Source: a virus
Strand: one strand, 5' to 3'
Length of the DNA stretch: 64,000 nucleotides
Virus record (IMG/VR): IMGVR_UViG_3300021961_000023
Under the pieces are notes generated by a model. The model ran no database searches. It was not told the DNA's origin and was given only the letters and a program-made list of their open reading frames with translations. Within the stretch, counting starts at the first letter, position 1. Each line of letters begins with the position of its first letter. The position numbers and the translations under genes were made by a program. Below, in pieces: positions 36,414-53,918 of this stretch.

Positions 36414-39400
36414 ATGCCTGAGTTCTCTGGAGTTTTTCTGACCGTCCAAAATCATGGTTGCATTTACACTATTTGCACCGAAGGTGAACTGTTTTCTGCT
36501 CCCATCTACAAAGATGGTACTATGAACATGGAGGAGTTTGACCTTGTTGATTTTTACTCTGGTGATGAAGATGAAGTGGAGGAACTTGAAGGTATTCAAG
36601 CAGCACTGATTGATATGATGGTTCGCGTTGGTCTTTACTTCAAAAAACCCGTTGCAGCATGAACAGCAAAGCACTTGCATATGGTATACTGATTGCTGTT
36701 GGACTAATCGTATACAATGTATGGTTAGTCCAACGTGATCAAAAGTTGTTCAAAGCATATGATGCTTGCACACAGTTTACACATCACCCTGATTGCCCTT
36801 ACACAAAATGACCACAGTAAATGGACGACCAGTTATTGAACATGACTGGGAGGAAGAGTATCGAAAGCAGATGAAGTATCGTCTGTCAGAAGTTGTGAGT
36901 GAGTATCTTCAAGATGAAAAGATTTCTGTCCTTGGATTCTACAATGATCTGACTGATGAGATTAAAAGTTTGGTAGATTACCATAAAAAACACCAAGAAA
37001 AAGCAGAAGGTATGCTACACTTGGTAAATGGTACAAAACCTAACTCTGACTTTGACTGTATCACTGGCATTCCTTTTTAAAATGTACGAAGATTTTCAAA
37101 TGAATCACATGGACACTAAACTGAGCGGAATGAATCCTGATGAGTTCGTTGCATTTGTAGAAGAATGTGAGAAGGAGGCAGATCGTCTTGAAATCACAGT
37201 GGACTACTATATTGCAGAGTTCACTTAATAATGCTATAATCTTTTTGTTAACTTACGGAGACTCATGAAAAGAATCGTTGTTGATCTGACTGAAGAAGAG
37301 TTTGAATTTGTTGTAGATTCCCTTGAAACTCAGGGTAATCTCAATGATCTTTCCGATCTTGCAGATGACATCATTGATAAACTTTACGAAGGTTCAAAGG
37401 AACACTCTCTATGAAGTATGAACCCCAAGTCAACGATTATGTTATCTGGTCAGGTAGAGAACATGTTCAAGGTTGGGTATACTTCAAAGATAAAAACTAT
37501 GTAACCATAGAGACTCAGGTAATACCAAAACATCCTGAAAGTTACAAAGACTGTAAACTACATGAAAATCATAGAGTCTTAGTTCTTTGTTATAGAGAGC
37601 AATGGAATCACCTAAACTATGTCAGATCAAGGAGTACAAAGTATGAGTGCTGAATCAAACTATGAAAAACTCAAGGAGTACTTGACGATCAAGTATAACT
37701 ATCTGGCACAACTAGGTAGATTCAATCTTGGAGAACGGGAGGGTTTGGAATCAGAGTATCAATGGAGATTGATCAGCGATATTATGGAATATGTTGATAA
37801 GATTGATCAACTTGACTACTTGATTGATACAGTAAAAACAAAAAAGACATCTGATTTCACAGTTATTAACGGAAACCTAAACAATGACCAAGGTTAAAAC
37901 TCAGTCTAATCTGAGCAAGAATCTCAAAACTCTAACTGAAACTTCTCCTACAAAATCTAAAGTCAAACCTGAACCAAAAACTAAGGTTAAGACCAAAAAT
38001 ACTCCAGAAGAAATTAAAGCAGTTAGAAGTGCAGATAAAACTCTGTTTCCACATGTTACTTTTCCATATCGATTAGACGATAAGAAAGAAAATAAAGTCT
38101 GTTGGTTTTCATGTTATCACCATGCAGAAAAATATATTACACGCTACCGACTTTCATCTAAGGAATACAAATTATGGCACTGTCCCAATCTGTTGAAGAA
38201 TCCCTAAAAGAAGCAGAGGCATCTCTTCGCAATGCACTTGCGTATGCAGCACGTCAAGAACGTCCTGTTATATGCACAACGATTTCAAAAGTGATCCAAG
38301 AGATTGAAGCACTTCAAACATTTGATAGTTTGATGGACAAACTGGAGAATCGTAAACCTGGAAGCAGTGGTAACTTTGGTTCATTCTTTGGTGAGTAAAG
38401 AACTGTTACAACACTCTAAAGACAAGATTAAGGATTACAACAACTCCCTTAAATACTGTTAGGATATGAACACAACACAAGTACGGGAGCATTTCTGTGA
38501 CACATTCATCAGGAAAAAAAGAAAAACTTACTGATGCCGAATGGAACGAAATGATTGCCTTAAAGAGAGCAATCAACCAGAGACCCCAATCAGTTCATCC
38601 TGATAAAATGGAAGAGTTTACTGAGTATTTGGTTCGTAGTTTAAGAGAAAAGGGTGGATGACTAAACTTATTTCTAAATCTGATCCTCAATATTTTGAGG
38701 TTACATCGACTGAACTTTATGATCGTCATGATTACAAAGTAGTTCTCTCTAATCAGCAAAGTTTCACTTTTGATAACTATGCTGATTGTTTTGCTCTATG
38801 GATTAGAACTCCAGATGAGTTAAAAGGTTACGTTGAAGTATTAGATCGTAAGCAAAAGAAAGGATTCAAATGAATATCAGACAACATCAAATAAAATCCA
38901 GTTGGTATTACATCTTTTGGGGTGCTATGGCAGTTGCTGTGGTTGGCGGACAAATCTATGTTGGCACAGGATACCGTGAGATGGCAAAGGCATCGCGTGA
39001 CACTGCAATAACTGTCACATGCATACCAGAATATCACTCCACACCTGTTAAACTGAACAGGTCTGGAGAATTTGAATGACCCTTGATTTTCCTCATACAG
39101 CACCAGAAGGTTATCGCTATGAAACTGAACCCTTTAAACGTAATGTTGATGCAATCTGGATTCATCATTGTCGCAGGTTTGATTACAATCTTGGTAGCGA
39201 CGTTCGTTGTATCTGGGGATTCTACAACAACAAAACAAAAGAATACTTCGCACCCATTAATAGTAAGACCGTTGGTAAGCGCGTAGATATCAAAGAAACT
39301 ACACCTTATTCTGCAATGCAGATTAAAATGACTCCACTTGAACGAGCATTCATATGAAACTGATTAAGTTTAATCATCGAGAAGACTTTGGACATGAGTG

Positions 39401-42400: not shown

Positions 42401-45400
42401 GCTAAACTATTAACTCGTAAAGCACCTTGGGACACTTGAATAACTGTCACATGACCCCTTGAAATAAGACGGTTTTGGTCTTATAGTAGTTTCATACTCA
42501 AGGCATATTCAAATGACTTACGATGAACTCTACGACCATGTTGTAAAGTATGTTGCTATGCCGCATACTACCATCACAGAGCATGATAAACGCCGTGCTT
42601 GTCTTATTCTAGGTGCTTTCATGGAGTTTATTCTTGACTGTCAGGACGAAGGTGTTGATTTGAATCCGATTGCTATTAATGATATTGTGAATGAGAAACT
42701 TGATGTATTGGAGGGCAAATGAGTTTTTCTAAGACTATTTCTGTTGTTGCCGCACTTGGCAGTATCTTCAGTGTCGGTCTTGCAAGTTGGAAAATTTCTG
42801 AGGACATTAAAAACTCACAAACTTCTCCTTTGGAGCAGAAAATCCAAGAACTTGAAAAAGAAATAGAAGAAGCAAAGAAACCAGTTGAACAGGTGGCACA
42901 ACCTCAGGTTCAACTCACACCACAACCGACTACACTACCTCCAGTAGCACCACCGCCACCAGCACCAACGGAAACACAACCATGAAAATGCGTATCATTC
43001 AAAAACCATCATTGACTGGTCATCCTGATGTTCATTGGTATCATTCTCAAGTAAAACGCTTTGGTTTTTGGGTAGATTGCCGCGATGACTTGTTTATGCT
43101 GTTGAGGTTTTCCAGTGAAATGATGGCACAATCCCATGATACCAATATGGGCAGAGTTCAAACTTTTGTAGAATATGCTATGCGTGGTGAAGATATGTTT
43201 CCTAAAAGCAAAACCAAAGTTATCAAGGAGTATTCAAAATGAGCGGCGGTCATTTCGGTAACTGCGGTTACGACTATTACAAGGTAGCACAGTTTGCTGA
43301 TGAGTTAGAAGAAGAGATTCTTCGCAATGGTAAGAAACGTGAAGATGGTGGATACTATGGTGAAGAGTATTATCCTGCTTTTGATGAAGAATGTATTGAA
43401 TACATGAAAGAGCAACTGCCGAAGATGCGTAAGATGGCAGAGATCATGAGACATATTGATTATCTGTACTCTGGTGATCATGGTGATGATAGTTTCATGG
43501 AACGTGTGAAAGAAGTGGAAGCAAAGTATGACTGATCTCTCTAAACTCTCCTACAAAGAACTTCACCAACTTGAAAAACAAATTGAAGAACGCAAAGAAA
43601 CATTGCGTAAGTCAAAGGATTGTGTTGAAGGATATAAGATCACCTTCTGTGTGAAGTTTAATCCTGCTAAACACCAATTTGATGAATTGAAAAGTTCAGA
43701 AGAGTTTGGTGAATACTTGGCAAATGATGTGACAGATTATATTGTTAAAGATGGTTTTCCTGATTTGATTGTGAGTGGTTTTGAGGTTGAAGAGATGGAT
43801 GAGTATTCTAAGGTAGAGTGGAAGGACTTCTGGGAGAGTGAAGTATGAAACTCCCATATGTGCTAAAATCATGGTATTATCACATCACAGGATACTGGGA
43901 GAAGAAACTACCACATCTTCCTGGTGCTAATTCTAAACAGTTTTGGAACATCATTAACGGTAATTGATTATGGTCGAAAAAGTAAAGTTTGTAACTGTCA
44001 CTCGTGTGATTGATGACCGCAAAGGTATTCATTACCTTGATGCTATTGATGTGAATGGGTATCACTGGACAGCAGAGATGGATAACAACCAAGAGAAATG
44101 GTTAGTGTACTCTAAACTGTGGACCAGAGACCCTCAACAACCTTATGATTTATGAAAAACTATCGCATCAAAAAAGTAACAGACGGACACTCAACCAGAT
44201 ACTACCCACAACACAAAAGATTTGGATTGTTTTGGTATAATCTATTTGTAGACGAATATAGGGATGGTGATTATTCTACATTTGAAGAAGCACAGTGGCA
44301 CCTTTGTAACTATTTGAGAGAACCTGTGGTAGAATATTTGTCCTTTGAATGTGGAGAGCCCCAGTGACCGACATCAAACTCTGTAAAGATTGTAAGTGGT
44401 ATAAGAAAGATTGGTTTGAACACCTCACTTATGGTGGAGACCGATTTGATACTTGCCATAATCCAGTAGTGAGTGGCAATCTGGTGACTGGAAAAGTCAA
44501 AGGTGGTCGTTTTTGTGATATGATGAGATTGTCTTATGGTAGATGTGGTAATGAAGGTAAGTATTGGGAGGCACGGAAATGACTGAATGGAAACCTGAAA
44601 AGAATATCTCATCTCCTTGGGATGTTGATGTGCGGGAGAATAACATAGGACAACCAATAAATCCTGAATTGACGGTAGATCCAGATTGGTATAGGTATAA
44701 AACTAAATTTCCTGACTATCAACTCATTCACAATCCAAAACTATCCAACTGGACTTGTTATTTGTTTGGTGGTTCTCCTGGTAATGGTATCCAATGGACA
44801 CCAAACAAAGGAAAAGTGCCTAATGCTTGGTATAGGTTCTGGATGAAAGTATTCTTTGATTGCAAGTGGGTGAAGAATGATGATTGATGAACTGAATAAA
44901 CCAACTCTTTATGAGAAACTGGAAGAATGGGTTGATTATGGAAACTTCGCACAATCCAGACATGTTCTTGTGAATGAGATTGTGAGTATTGTAAAAGATT
45001 GGTTGCCGAAAGAACAATCTGCTGCTGGTTCTCAAAATGTGTATGTTGAATGTACAGTAGAAGGTTTCAACGATTGTCTTAACAAAATCAAGAGGAAACT
45101 ACGATAATGCCGTTCTTTCCTGATTGCTATGATGAGTGGGGTCTTTACAAGATTACCTATGATGGAGACCACAAACTATACGAAATGCTGTTTGAGGGAA
45201 CTGAAGAAGAGTGTCGTCAATATGCTTATGATAACTATACCGACAAAGAGCAAACTGATATGTGTCTGATGGATTGGGAAGCAAGGGAGTGGAGTGTATG
45301 ATGACTAAAGAAGAACTTAAAAGTTTCACCACATCATTGGTAGATCATTACCAAGTGGCATACAAGTATGATAAAGGAGATTCAGAAGAGTATCGTACAC

Positions 45401-45987
45401 AAAAACATGATACAATGAGAATGGCACTTGCTGCTGCCAACTTCCTTGACGCACGAGGAGATTATACTATCATCTCTGTGACACCTATCTACAAAAACTA
45501 CGGACAGGATTGATGAGAAGTAAAACTTATTTACAGTATGTTGCGATTCCTGCACTTGCATTTTTCTTTTCTGCGATTGTATCCTATAATCTAACACCAG
45601 AGAGGACACCACAACACACTTCTACTGTTTCTGGATCTTCTGGTGATCTTATCTGCACAACGTCTTGTAAAGTGAAGGAATAATCATGTTTGAAACTAAA
45701 ACCTCCTGGTGGTTTGAAAAACAATCAAATAAACAATGGTTAAACCGTGCTCAATCAAAACTTGAAGAAGTTGTAGAACGACACGATGATGATATTGAAC
45801 AGATTGAAAGACGATTACGTTATTTGGAAGACCAACTACCATGACTTATACTGTATCTTATCTCAAACCAAAGAAGAAAGGATATGCACAACAGACTGCT
45901 ACGTTTCTAAAGATTGAAGATGCGATTCTATGGGAGAAACATGTATTAAAGGAAGGTGCTAAAGATCTACAAATCCTAGTATCTTAA
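36414..45987 (+). other. Dense array of roughly 40 small co-oriented hypothetical ORFs (e.g. 36414..36662, 37411..37653, 37884..38207, 38174..38398, 39076..39357, 39354..39644, 40146..40544, 40917..41705, 42110..42439, 42719..42985, 43239..43535, 43528..43848, 44580..44887)
   Basis: Back-to-back ORFs with ATGA overlaps and no recognisable catalytic motifs. Contains early elements at 40051, 42429 and 42881. Confidence 0.7.
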
Positions 45988-46433
45988 ACGTTATTGTAAC
46001 GTACCTGATCAGTTAATACTTTAATGTATTTTCTTATCTTATGCCATTCCTCTGTAGGCATGATTGTCATACCATTAGGTAGGTGAGTAATCTCTTCTAC
46101 TCTATCTACTACTTCTACCTTTGGTCTTTTAACTCCTGCTCTAATCCAATGTAAGTTAGATGCATGATTATTAAACTTATCACCATCTAAGTGTTCAACA
46201 ACTCTATTCTTTGAGTATCCTTCACAGTAGAGGAATGCAACTAATCTATGAACATAAAAGGATCTTGATCTCTTTCTCTCTTTATCATAAACACTTACCG
46301 CAAAGTATTCTACACCCTTTGATCTACGGATAAACTGTTTGAGTTTCCTATTTGTTTTATTGTTAAAGACCTCTCCTTTCTCTGTTACTGTAAGGTTCTC
46401 TAATGAAGGATCTAAACTCCTCAAAGACTTCAT
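45984..46433 (-). CDS. HNH endonuclease
   Basis: YVHRLVA...VVEHLDGDKFNNHASNLHW; ATG at 46433; the only convincing minus-strand gene. Confidence 0.8.
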   Translation of the reverse strand: MKSLRSLDPSLENLTVTEKGEVFNNKTNRKLKQFIRRSKGVEYFAVSVYDKERKRSRSFYVHRLVAFLYCEGYSKNRVVEHLDGDKFNNHASNLHWIRAGVKRPKVEVVDRVEEITHLPNGMTIMPTEEWHKIRKYIKVLTDQVRYNNV

Positions 46434-46715
46434 AATCTGCTGCAACTAGTTGGACTATGTTATATAGGGTATTCTGCTGCAACAATGGTTGGAGTATATT
46501 ATGATATAGCGCAACTAGGTTGAAGTAGGAATAAATGTTAAAATTAATATGGTTGAGAGTATAGTGCAACGGGTTGGAGTAGGTGAATCTCGACGAGAAA
46601 CCTGCATACTTATGTTGAATCTCGACGAGAAATGTGTGATCTTATGTTGAATAATGTGTGATCTTATGCTAAATCTCGACGAGAAATGTGTGATCTTATA
46701 GTCATCTTAGCCCGC

Positions 46716-46744
46716 ATTATATCAGATCTCGTCTAGAATGTCAA
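46716..46744 (-). promoter_or_regulatory. Leftward consensus sigma70 promoter
   Basis: The minus strand reads TTGACA-TTCTAGACGAGATCTGA (17 nt)-TATAAT. Confidence 0.85.
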
Positions 46745-46779
46745 TACGCCCGTGTCAGAAAATCTCGACGAGACGCACA

Positions 46780-46809
46780 TTGACATATAGGCATCATTCA
46801 TGGTATTAT
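46780..46809 (+). promoter_or_regulatory. Rightward sigma70 promoter
   Basis: TTGACA-N18-TATTAT with an extended -10 TG. Confidence 0.75.
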
Positions 46810-47054
46810 ATAATCTCGACGAGATCCACATGAATCCGCAGCACTATACTGCAATACATCTCGACTAGATTATGCAGCATATCGCAGCATTATACTGCAA
46901 TACTCGTTGCACTAGATCTCGACGAGACACAGTGACACACTGCACATGCTTCAACCACACGTTGCACTAGATCTCGACGACATATACAGCGTCATAATAT
47001 ACTGCAACGTATGGTTGGACTAGATGCATATATAATAGCGTCCAGATGTTACAC

Positions 47055-47083
47055 TTGACGCAGGACGCCATATCTGTTATCAT
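47055..47083 (+). promoter_or_regulatory. Sigma70 promoter for 47109..47279
   Basis: TTGACG-N17-TATCAT with a TG extension. Confidence 0.7.
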
Positions 47084-47108
47084 ACTTGTTGTATCGCACA
47101 GGTTTCCT

Positions 47109-47529
47109 ATGATCACGTATGCACAGAAGCAAAAGTATCGCATCACCCTGGAAGTCGAGGTGATGGATGACTTTGACCCCTATCAGATTGAGTGGAAAAA
47201 TGTACTTCTCCTGGAGGGAAATGAGTCCTGCCAGGCATATATTGAGGATCTTAGCAGAGTTGATGAACTTAAATGGTAACTTGTGCCAGTTGTTAAAGTG
47301 TCACAGAGGGGGTTGCAATGCCCCCTTTTTGATGCAATGATACACAAGTCGTCGAGATTGATGTAACTTGAAGAACTACCGAGTTCGTGTCGAAACTTAT
47401 GACGGTTGCGTGACGATTTGGCATGAAAAGTCTAAAGCAAAGACTGCTGACAAATTGATACTTAACCGTGTCTACAATCAACTCTGTGGTCTGAATATTA
47501 AAGAGATCGAAGTTACTCCTTCTGTCTGA
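47109..47529 (+). CDS. Two small early proteins (47109..47279; 47368..47529 with a TTG start, MKNYRVRVETYDG...)
   Basis: Each follows its own promoter; the second was translated by hand. Confidence 0.6.
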
Positions 47530-47557
47530 ACATTCTCTCGTTAACTAACACAAACTC

Positions 47558-47761
47558 ATGATGACTGATAATACTCTGGAACCCAAAGAACTTCTCGATC
47601 AGGTGTTAACTAAGATCGCACAAAAGTATGTCTTTGGTCTTGAAACTTTGGAGACTCAGAATAGTGATTCTGCAGACTTTTATGATGTCGCAGTGTGGCA
47701 GATTAGAGATGCTCTCAGGGATGCATTCGTGGCAGGAATGCATACAGGTATGACAATCTGA
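47558..47761 (+). CDS. DUF6900-like small protein
   Basis: IAQKY...ETLETQNSDSADFYDVAVWQIRDAL..AF.AG. Confidence 0.65.
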   Translation: MMTDNTLEPKELLDQVLTKIAQKYVFGLETLETQNSDSADFYDVAVWQIRDALRDAFVAGMHTGMTI

Positions 47762-47852
47762 GAACTGTCCACTAAATCCCCCAAAGCACCCGATGAGGTG
47801 CAATGATACATTTCGTCGGGCAAATCTCTACATTCCCCCCGATTTAAAGACA

Positions 47853-48898
47853 ATGCAACTCACTCAATCTTTCCCCCCCGTTGATGACATGATCACCAAA
47901 CTGCAGGAGATCGATTACAAGAAACACCTCAATAACTACATGGATTTTGTTGAGACTTTCGTGGTATACATTGCTGCGATTGCTACTGTTCTTTGGGAGA
48001 AGTTTCAAACCATGAAGATCACAACTCCTGATATCATTTCGGATTACTTCTATTTCAACTTTAACATGCGTGCTACATCTGGTGATGAAATCATCGGACT
48101 CAGTATTGGTAACCGTTACGTGGGATTGTATAGCGATTCCCTGAATTGGGGCATTCTTGATGAGAATGGGTGCCTCTGATTAATATTAATCTGTGCCAAT
48201 CTGAGAACTGGCACAAGGGGGGTTGTAATGCCCCCCGATCCGTGCAATACTAACAAAGTCAAGAAAGGACACGCAATGTTTGATGAACTTTGGTCTGAGA
48301 TTCAAGATGCGCCTGGTGAGATTTTTGATCTCGACATTCCAGAGATTGAAGATCAAGATAGTTTCAACATCAATGAGTATCTGAACGCTGATTATGATTA
48401 TTGATCTGATCGCATCTGTTGTCCTTCGTTATCACTTCCATCATGTTCACTTCTGAAGAACTTACCGCACTTCTTTCTTTGATTGAGTTTCATGATGATT
48501 GGGAAGAGGTGAGTGAAATCGTAGGTGCAGATGTTCCTGCATTGTATGAGAAACTTCACAACATGTTAGCATACGCTACTCAAGGGTGATGAATAACTTT
48601 ATCTTCGGAGTTGTTGCTGGCATTGTGTTAGCAACTGTTGGTTTCAATGGTATGGCACAGATGGGAAATCGTGCTGTGCAAGGTATTCAATCATTCGCCC
48701 AATCTTCTGCAAACTGACATGAACCGCACTGAACTTCAAGATCAACTCATTCAGCAAATGTTGGATGACATGGATCTCAAAACAATGACCCAACTTTGTT
48801 ATGATTATCTGGATGAGGGTTATGCTAAGTATTCTGATGAAGAATTGATCACTGAGTGTGAAGAATACTATCCCGAACTGCTAGAGGGTGACAGTTGA
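47853..48898 (+). CDS. Small early proteins (47853..48179, 48276..48404, about 48443..48590, about 48589..48717, 48719..48898)
   Basis: Hand-translated tandem ORFs, several of them highly acidic. Confidence 0.6.
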
Positions 48899-52903: not shown

Positions 52904-53071
52904 ATGAAACACACCGTGTATCACGTCTATCACTCAAAAGAAGTCATCGCCCACAGTTTGTCAAAAGAAGAGTTAATCCGCAAGATTATTGAAGATGAGA
53001 TCAAGCCGAATAAGCACGAGATTCTCATGTTGACGACAGATTTAGAGAGGGGAACCGAACAATCATATTAG
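52904..53071 (+). CDS. Small hypothetical protein
   Basis: MKHTVYHVYHSKEVIAHSLSKEE...EQSY*, 55 aa, hand-translated. Confidence 0.55.
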   Translation: MKHTVYHVYHSKEVIAHSLSKEELIRKIIEDEIKPNKHEILMLTTDLERGTEQSY

Positions 53072-53123: not shown

Positions 53124-53918
53124 ATGGCAAAAGGATTTAAAGTAAAAACAGCACAAGTACAGCAACAAGATGGTCTCGATTGGGACTATGATGCTATCAA
53201 AGAGCGTATGCGTGGTAAGAGCATTGTCTTTTGCCTACCTGGTCGAGGATGCTCTTACATTTTTCTGAAGAACTTTGTTCAACTGTGTTTTGACATGGTT
53301 CAGAACCAGATGAACATTCAGATCTCTCAAGATTATTCTTCGATGGTGAACTTTGCACGTTGTAAGTGTTTGGGTGCAAATGTTCTCCGTGGTCCCGATC
53401 AGATTCCCTGGGATGGTAAACTGCAATATGATTACCAACTCTGGATTGATAACGATATTGTTTTCAACACTGAGAAGTTCTGGCAACTGTGTGATCTCGC
53501 AGTTCCTGGTCCTGACAAAGACGGTAATCCTCAAGATGAGCGTATGATCGCAGCAGGTTGGTATGCCACCGAAGACGGACATACTACCAGCGTCGCACAC
53601 TGGCTCGATGAAGAAGACTTCCGTAAGAACGGTGGTGTGATGAATCATGAGACCGTAGAGACCATGAGTAAGCGTCGTAAACCCTTTACTGTGGACTATA
53701 CTGGTTTCGGTTGGGTCATGATCAAGAACGGTGTCTTTGAGCACCCTGAGATGAAGTATCCCTGGTTCGCTCCTCAGATGCAAACCTTTGAGGACGGTAA
53801 AGTTCAGGATATGTGTGGTGAAGACGTATCATTCTGTCTTGATGCAAAGGCAGCAGGCATTGTGACCTGGTGTGATCCTCGGATCCGCGTGGGTCACGAA
53901 AAGACTCGTATTATTTGA
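53124..53918 (+). CDS. Conserved cyanophage GT-A fold glycosyltransferase-like protein
   Basis: VNFAR, LWIDNDIVF (DxD), YTGFGW, GEDVSFC, RVGHEK. Confidence 0.75.
   Translation: MAKGFKVKTAQVQQQDGLDWDYDAIKERMRGKSIVFCLPGRGCSYIFLKNFVQLCFDMVQNQMNIQISQDYSSMVNFARCKCLGANVLRGPDQIPWDGKLQYDYQLWIDNDIVFNTEKFWQLCDLAVPGPDKDGNPQDERMIAAGWYATEDGHTTSVAHWLDEEDFRKNGGVMNHETVETMSKRRKPFTVDYTGFGWVMIKNGVFEHPEMKYPWFAPQMQTFEDGKVQDMCGEDVSFCLDAKAAGIVTWCDPRIRVGHEKTRII

Follow-up and report, generated by a model that had tools for sequence, protein, structure and literature searches.

The stretch analyzed here (the window) is the 64-kb viral sequence IMGVR_UViG_3300021961_000023 from IMG/VR, and its region 46434–47108 contains no credible open reading frame (ORF). 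Within this region lies an array of short palindromes around two divergent promoters, which a first-pass annotation had described as nine palindromic operators. Nine are present: six exact copies of TCTCGACGAGA and three copies with one mismatch, confined to 395 bp (46588–46982; Table 1), with no exact or one-mismatch copy elsewhere in the 64 kb. When up to two mismatches were allowed, 26 matches were found compared with 8.2 ± 3.0 in shuffled sequences, and none of 100 shuffles reached 26. The window sites are 13-bp palindromes in both orientations, 32–58 bp apart. A partial tenth copy, also reported earlier, is a two-mismatch operator on the minus strand (47347..47357).

Both promoters named in that annotation proved to be close matches to the sigma70-type consensus. 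The leftward promoter, P_L (TTGACA-17-TATAAT, 46744..46716, minus strand), agrees at 12/12 positions and the rightward promoter, P_R (TTGACA-18-TATTAT, 46780..46809, plus strand), at 11/12; each also has an extended −10 TG. The operators at 46727, 46763 and 46814 do lie in the P_L spacer, between the two −35 boxes and over the P_R start, with operator centers at −59, −23 and +30 relative to P_L and at −48, +3 and +48 relative to P_R. The palindromes overlap core elements of divergent promoters and include a shared central site, which is the arrangement of lambda- and P22-type switches. No ORF of 45 amino acids or more is present in 46817–47046, in agreement with the earlier remark that the rightward transcript runs for about 290 nt without an evident ORF.

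The window source is a T4-like cyanophage of the Kyanoviridae. At the nucleotide level it is matched best by short stretches of Synechococcus and Prochlorococcus myoviruses, and it codes for gp25, Kyano_Gp96, DUF6267 and many small plus-strand ORFs. IMG/VR was scanned for two exact copies of the palindrome 20–50 bp apart, and at least 119 viral contigs satisfied this criterion; approximately 0.2 matches would be expected by chance for 22 specified bases (our own estimate). Across 322 distinct instances, the only flanking information was an A before (−1) and a T after (+11) the 11-mer; the site is therefore a 13-bp palindrome, A-TCTCG-A-CGAGA-T. A homolog of the small acidic ORF to the right of the array (47109–47279, phrog_12516) is present in 97 of the 119 loci listed, and these 97 loci carry two to nine exact core copies at about −600 to −180 nt from the stop codon of that homolog. 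In five near-complete contigs (105–175 kb), nearly all exact and one-mismatch copies fall into one to three clusters within ~6 kb, a pattern shared by the isolates S-SRM01 and S-T4, and the secondary clusters of relatives stand before other small genes.

The array is also found in cultured phages. In S-SRM01, 11 exact cores form three clusters (85.5–91.0 kb), S-T4 has 2 + 2 exact copies plus degenerate copies, S-SKS1 has two exact copies, and P-SSM5, which belongs to the P-SSM2 species, has six sites arrayed around a perfect TTGACA-17-TATAAT with an operator in its spacer. It is absent from the isolates S-PM2, S-SM2, S-SCSM1, Syn9, P-SSM4, S-RSM4, P-HM2, S-CAM7, Sf-CH8 and ACG-2014f. The sites are conserved in more than 100 related phages, and the palindrome is kept across genera, hosts, and marine and freshwater habitats. 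The locus had been called unexpected in a lytic myovirus; this does not hold, because the array is widespread in a Kyanoviridae clade. The CTCGWCGAG array family of Kyanoviridae is defined in this analysis and not taken from the literature: at least three copies upstream of a phrog_12516 ORF, one of them in the spacer of a consensus promoter, as is the case in the window. Literature searches on the motif and on cyanophage origins or early promoters gave no description of the palindrome, and no expression class for the P-SSM2 genes beside its array turned up in the supplements examined.

Members of the family share a usual order. An AT-rich stretch with TTGAGAAT/ATTCTCAA boxes or two to four phased cyanobacterial DnaA boxes comes first, followed by short tandem repeats (in several of the loci examined) and a conserved GC-rich element, then the operator array with a main promoter that holds one operator in its spacer, and finally an acidic Tyr-rich ORF, a proximal promoter, a small acidic ORF and a hairpin. 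DnaA boxes (TTWTCCACA) occur in 14 IMG/VR loci (e.g., L041, L071, L091 and L027) as two to four perfect boxes 11–21 bp apart, located 500–1000 bp upstream of the stop codon of the small ORF, and these loci hold 39 of the 60 DnaA boxes found in 907 kb. DnaA boxes and TTGAGAAT/ATTCTCAA boxes fill the same slot and are almost mutually exclusive. Boxes of the TGTGGAAAA type stand upstream of the homologous small ORF in S-SM2 and S-SCSM1. The tandem repeats upstream of the arrays in L002, L013, L028 and L104 have units like CTTATAAACCCCT or CTTCTAATACCTT in up to about eight copies, and a conserved element (...ATAAGACGCGCAGTTTGTCAAG...CCGCCG...) comes after the repeats of such loci; tandem repeats and the ATAAGACGCGCAGTTTGTCAAG-containing element are both absent from the window.

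Operators keep characteristic positions at the main promoter. L356, P-SSM5 and window P_L have a triad of sites, one near −48 to −59, another at −23 and a third at +20 to +30. The arrangement TTGACA-(1-4 nt)-CTCGACGAG-(4-7 nt)-TATAAT is shared by L104, L024 and P-SSM5, and L041 and L356 have versions of it whose −10 boxes are weaker. In 73 non-identical arrays, operator centers cluster at −25..−21, −5..−1 and +15..+19 of strong promoter-like sites, avoiding the hexamers. The spacing of adjacent copies is most commonly 31–33 bp, then 42, 21–24 and 60–62 bp, near whole helical turns. These position and spacing counts are inflated by relatedness and are to be taken as descriptive, not as probabilities.

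Between the array and the small ORF, approximately 90 IMG/VR loci carry the acidic Tyr-rich ORF (MYDDYDLDY...DLDE...LAYRHYA, 46–70 amino acids), which has conserved ends and a variable middle and includes one to three operators in frame as Leu-Asp-Glu (CTC GAC GAG). An ORF containing Leu-Asp-Glu was obtained there for 93/97 loci and was mostly the acidic Tyr-rich ORF; it is missing from the window and L079, and none was returned for L041, L101 and L104. Its conservation indicates that this is a real gene, because the ends are protein-conserved across diverged sequences and the differences read between S-SRM01 and the contigs are mostly synonymous or conservative. The copy at L123:5078-5239 corresponds to ~85626–85787 of the S-SRM01 record and has no annotation in S-SRM01.

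Table 1. Features at the array locus of the window
Feature	Position	Strand	Remarks
HNH_3-type homing endonuclease gene	45984..46433	-	ATG at 46433; leftward target of P_L via a ~275-nt leader
Four second-family dyads, GCAAC-N2-4-GTTGR	46442..46577	+	Starts at 46442, 46479, 46511 and 46566
Operator 1	46588..46598		Exact
Operator 2	46620..46630		Exact
Operator 3	46674..46684		Exact; center ~+30 of P_L
Operator 4	46727..46737		One mismatch, reads TCTAGACGAGA on the minus strand; P_L spacer, center −23
Operator 5	46763..46773		Exact; between both −35 boxes, common to P_L (−59) and P_R (−48)
Operator 6	46814..46824		Exact; over P_R start, center +3
Operator 7	46859..46869		One mismatch (TCTCGACTAGA); center +48 of P_R
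Operator 8	46917..46927		Exact
Operator 9	46972..46982		One mismatch (TCTCGACGACA)
39-nt imperfect inverted repeat	46941..47028		Arms 46941–46979 and 46990–47028, 72% complementary
Proximal promoter-like site, TTGACG-17-TATCAT (10/12)	47055..47083	+	No operator; just before 47109–47279; counterpart in relatives examined
56-aa acidic ORF, phrog_12516	47109..47279	+	Gene linked most tightly to the array
Intrinsic-terminator-like hairpin (G5 stem, 8-nt loop, C5, then T5)	47306..47330	+	Read by eye
ORF, phrog_12489	47368–47529		Preceded by the partial tenth operator

The HNH_3 gene is the sole convincing minus-strand gene near the locus; its product matches Pfam HNH_3 with an E value of 3.2e-5 and 23.9 bits, slightly below the 24.8 cut-off. 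The hairpin that follows the 56-aa ORF was not among the sites listed by a simple scan. An imperfect 9-6-9 palindrome of the TGTGCCAGT type lies between that ORF and the hairpin (47282–47305).

On balance, and with somewhat better than even confidence, we read the locus as an operator array for a dimeric DNA-binding regulator that would control a small number of early genes from a handful of very strong, presumably early promoters. A short perfect palindrome whose 1-nt center excludes a hairpin is the signature of a dimeric DNA-binding protein. This reading would also account for a palindrome that stays exact while its spacers drift and that sits in the spacer or start of consensus promoters, a promoter-with-operator design that recurs in many related phages; the sites appear to be repeated on one face of the helix and reused before a few other small genes, as in a regulon. 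We infer from the sequence that a protein binds here, that it represses, that the promoters fire early and what kind of protein the binder is. The locus would be a cis-regulatory hub of the early-gene region, at which one, probably homodimeric, protein recognizes A-TCTCG-A-CGAGA-T. Host RNA polymerase would be kept out by a protein occupying −23 or +3, which makes repression the simplest mechanism. Both the leftward HNH nuclease transcript and the rightward transcript, which crosses a 290-nt leader to reach the acidic ORF at 47109–47279, would thereby be shut off or timed. Cooperative, high-occupancy binding or looping would come from the flanking copies, many of which are separated by whole helical turns, and sites at −48 to −60 could add cooperativity or activation. 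The first-pass annotation had proposed a switch or a replication origin at the head of the early region. The switch part fits the operators on two divergent consensus promoters, whereas the origin part is unsupported by the window, and small plus-strand ORFs of early-region type on both flanks of the locus contradict its placement at the head of that region.

Several points weigh against an operator array of this kind. Several sites, at −48 to −65, occupy activator-type positions, so that regulation could be of either sign, and the use and timing of the array promoters are predictions. The position and spacing pattern carries the inflation from relatedness given above. Relatives have DnaA boxes and tandem repeats beside their arrays, and regulation and replication are inseparable by sequence alone. 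No binding protein was identified: the genes flanking the array encode the HNH nuclease and small, very acidic proteins that lack a DNA-binding domain, and the sole DNA-binding-like correlate of the arrays, a 57-aa AbrB/MazE-like family, occurs neither in the 64-kb window nor in G002, a window-type contig of 172 kb, and is missing at nearly all window-clade loci.

The binder is probably phage-encoded, a view that is mildly favored by the lack of enrichment of the site in host genomes. The AbrB/MazE-like family is encoded directly upstream of a conserved 264-aa gene (window homolog 53124–53918) and occurs in the array-positive S-SRM01 (93314–93481), S-T4, P-SSM2 (PSSM2_102), P-SSM5, S-SKS1 and contigs G001 and G003–G005, with no match in the array-negative S-PM2, Syn9, P-SSM4, S-RSM4, P-HM2, S-SM2 and S-SCSM1. 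It was rejected because it is also present in the array-negative S-CAM7, Sf-CH8 and ACG-2014f; within the window clade it precedes the 264-aa gene in 2/77 loci, with no link to arrays. The slot before the 264-aa gene holds either the AbrB/MazE-like protein (e.g., L058:8938-9111) or an unrelated ORF of 53–63 amino acids, and the 55-aa ORF found there in the window (52904–53071) has no detectable family. Three IMG/VR contigs of 5–13 kb (L346, L347 and L348) encode a 264-aa protein 95–98% identical to that of the window and probably derive from the same phage or a sister phage; none extends to the array.

Other candidates fared no better. The ORF at 47109–47279 is strongly acidic and its sequence does not co-vary with operator presence: near-identical N termini occur in the motif-less S-SCSM1 and S-SM2, and divergent homologs in majority-type loci keep the motif. 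A family of basic 61–70-aa ORFs after the secondary clusters (S-SRM01 gp177) was rejected, since S-SM2 has a member despite lacking the motif and none was found in S-T4 or P-SSM2. Between operator clusters 2 and 3 of S-SRM01, an unannotated 100-aa ORF (record 90334–90636; L123:9786-10088) resembles winged-helix/MarR proteins (Pfam MarR, E 0.015) and has 55–63% identity to ORFs in L064, L023 and L004; this winged helix-turn-helix ORF is too rare to be the binder (four loci, one isolate). The window also encodes a 107-aa protein (37884–38207) whose N-terminal tail is Lys-rich and whose conserved C-terminal core has Cys/His positions; it may be a small nucleic-acid-binding protein. Homologs with the Lys-rich tail at either end are present in S-PM2, S-SM2, S-T4, S-SKS1, ACG-2014f and S-SRM01, that is, in array-positive and array-negative phages, and the family was rejected. 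Weak Pfam matches to PrlF and TacA1 among the window ORFs could be traced to no particular ORF and are probably due to chance. A presence/absence profile over whole genomes, five array-positive versus six array-negative (complete or near-complete), returned mostly antisense artifacts and no convincing regulator.

It is also conceivable, if doubtful, that the locus is a replication origin, with the palindromes as iteron-like initiator sites and the non-coding transcript of a strong promoter priming the leading strand via an R-loop; the roles are not exclusive, and the array may serve as origin and switch together. An origin role draws its probability from the 14 related loci with phased DnaA boxes just upstream of their arrays, and relatives have AT-rich tracts and short tandem repeats there as well, whereas in the window neither the locus nor its surroundings contain a DnaA box or a marked AT-rich unwinding tract (lowest GC ~30% compared with ~38% overall), and most related loci have other boxes in place of the DnaA boxes. 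The array occurs once, or nearly so, in each genome, the ~290 nt of the rightward transcript are non-coding, the spacing of the sites is in phase with the helix, and T4 provides a precedent in its promoter-primed origins (PMC3016281). Against this, long direct iterons are lacking: the sites are short and palindromic, occur in both orientations and are superimposed on core promoter elements, and no initiator, helicase-loader or primase gene adjoins them. The GC-skew slope does change near 45–46 kb, falling from ~+0.15 to ~0 near the array (~45000–46000) and staying low until ~53 kb, but the skew, which had been suggested as a check for an origin, has no sign change in the window. Relatives with two or three clusters before different small genes, and the one to three copies inside a protein-coding ORF in most relatives, would fit a regulon better than an origin.

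Titration or recruitment of a host DNA-binding protein (a transcription factor or nucleoid protein) by the array, as a decoy, sink or host-factor site, would explain why no phage-encoded binder was found and why the five-versus-six profile gave no real ORF fitting perfectly, and relatives' arrays do adjoin host DnaA boxes. We consider it improbable: exact 13-mers are at control level in 401 genomes (drawn from the phylum of G006, an Obscuribacteraceae metagenome-assembled genome, taken as Cyanobacteriota) and nearly absent at picocyanobacterial genome size, paired copies occur in no cyanobacterial genome, and array-bearing and array-less phages share a host, WH7803 (S-T4, S-SKS1, S-PM2 and S-SCSM1). 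Two further readings are very improbable. In one, the self-complementary repeats would act at the RNA level, shaping a structured leader or non-coding RNA such as an attenuator or antisense partner; the rightward leader does fold better than shuffled sequences (z −3.6, 0/200 shuffles as good) and contains the 39-nt imperfect hairpin, whereas the leftward leader is indistinguishable from shuffles (z −1.4). A palindrome with a 1-nt center cannot self-fold, copies lie upstream of, inside and downstream of promoters and on both sides, the motif alone and not its pairing partners is conserved among relatives, and no relevant Rfam match was found in 45500–48500. Nor do the copies look like the functionless, decaying remains of a duplicated coding repeat (CTC GAC GAG, Leu-Asp-Glu): 6/9 are perfect though the spacers have diverged, they fall in all three frames, and relatives' copies are mostly non-coding and in promoter positions. 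What such a relic would explain is the in-frame presence of one to three copies in the real acidic ORF of ~90 relatives, together with a window that lacks this ORF and in which parts of 46837–46905 resemble, by eye, its 3′ end and the proximal promoter.

Compared with other members of the operator-array family, the window is, on the evidence of its layout, a rearranged derivative. Its triad promoter points left to the HNH gene, inverted relative to the small ORF, a rightward second promoter carries an operator at +3, the acidic Tyr-rich ORF has been lost, and nine sites put it at the top of the family range. The upstream box slot holds GCAAC-N-GTTGR dyads; the four dyads at 46442–46577 occupy the place used by DnaA boxes or TTGAGAAT boxes in relatives, and no such dyads were found in the other 96 related arrays. 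A second dyad family flanking the array had been claimed before. With the relaxed pattern GCAAC-N2-6-GTTGR the family is non-random (nine window matches compared with 1.2 ± 1.0 expected, six of them within 46442–47018), whereas the stricter pattern originally given matches only two. The symmetry ascribed to the locus is likewise real but loose, an imperfect inverted duplication of ~290 bp: the reverse complement of the left arm aligns to the right arm with a score of 70 compared with 25 ± 4 for shuffles, and GC skew is mirror-imaged across ~46710. The inverted repeat at 46941–47028 contains operator 9 and two second-family dyads and forms the main hairpin in the folded rightward leader.

Homing endonuclease genes recur beside the arrays. 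A GIY-YIG homing endonuclease gene lies left of the array on the opposite strand in 29/29 loci that have both genes (e.g., L096:4459-5268), in S-SRM01 an HNH gene lies immediately before the first array and shares the strand of its neighbors, and the corresponding part of the ACG-2014f early region holds an HNH gene that points left. The recurrence of GIY-YIG or HNH genes left of arrays suggests that the upstream flank is a repeated landing site for free-standing homing endonucleases, and the inverted duplication in the window may be a by-product of such an insertion. Loss of the acidic ORF with retention of nine sites in mixed reading frames argues that the DNA site is maintained, not the peptide. 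The module illustrates how an array survives when it undergoes inverted duplication, when an ORF embedded in it disappears and when a homing endonuclease gene is inserted, while the type of upstream box is swapped among DnaA boxes, TTGAGAAT boxes and GCAAC-GTTGG dyads.

In the ocean, T4-like cyanophages rank with the most abundant viruses. They are not known to have MotA or AsiA, and how their early transcription is timed without the T4 middle-mode factors and where their replication starts are the questions that give the locus its interest. One far-reaching proposal, which we hold to be distinctly unlikely, is a system specific to a Kyanoviridae clade and new to the literature, in which a phage protein not yet recognizable from its sequence binds the palindrome and shuts off a small set of very strong early promoters, and in which the resulting complex, including the neighboring arrays of DnaA, TTGAGAAT or GCAAC-GTTGG boxes, licenses promoter-primed replication. 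If it were true, the array would be the missing early-to-middle switch and the origin of T4-like cyanophages. A direct experimental handle comes from the sharp definition of the 13-bp site and its presence in three cultured systems (S-SRM01, S-T4 and P-SSM2/P-SSM5).

Several known systems invite comparison. Lambda OR/OL (CI/Cro) and P22 Arc/Mnt likewise have short palindromes over the −35/−10 spacer and the start of strong, partly divergent promoters, with several, probably cooperative, sites in a layout that suggests timing or shut-off. The window differs in having nine sites instead of three, no repressor gene flanking the operators and no lysogeny genes; in lambda and P22 the regulator gene is transcribed from the controlled promoters, whereas here they lead leftward to the HNH gene and rightward to acidic small ORFs, so that the regulated genes would encode tiny acidic proteins and a homing endonuclease. 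KorB of RK2 has 13-bp sites at many promoters, and arrays for ribbon-helix-helix (RHH) proteins are represented by omega of pSM19035 and ParR-parC of R1. Shared features are a 13-bp palindrome with a central base that is reused at several promoters, and arrays that flank a core promoter. Unlike those plasmid systems, this one belongs to a lytic myovirus, has sites 21–70 bp apart instead of contiguous ones, and has no ParB-family or RHH gene that was found nearby.

P1 and plasmid iteron origins combine DnaA boxes, an AT-rich tract, direct-repeat iterons of 17–22 bp and an autoregulated rep gene. Some relatives of the window phage do order DnaA boxes, an AT-rich tract with tandem repeats, repeated sites and a promoter in a similar way, but the repeated sites are 13-bp palindromes and no rep-like gene is present; the window has neither Rep-bound direct repeats with an adjoining gene nor DnaA boxes with an AT-rich element. 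Among T4 origins, oriE consists of iterons. T4 oriF and oriG consist of a promoter and an unwinding element and are R-loop primed (PMC3016281). The window has a promoter and a 290-nt non-coding leader, with no clear unwinding element seen; it differs from them in that its sites overlap the promoter core and that relatives have multiple clusters before genes. Common to T4 oriF/oriG/oriE and this family are a strong promoter over non-coding DNA and a repeat-rich, unique locus in a T4-like genome, to which relatives of the window phage add DnaA boxes and AT-rich tracts. Operator arrays at phage promoters are a known kind of element, and this palindrome family and its spread through the Kyanoviridae are apparently undescribed in the literature; the locus bears on the timing of early transcription in abundant marine phages, and the window adds a variant architecture to that picture, not a new principle.

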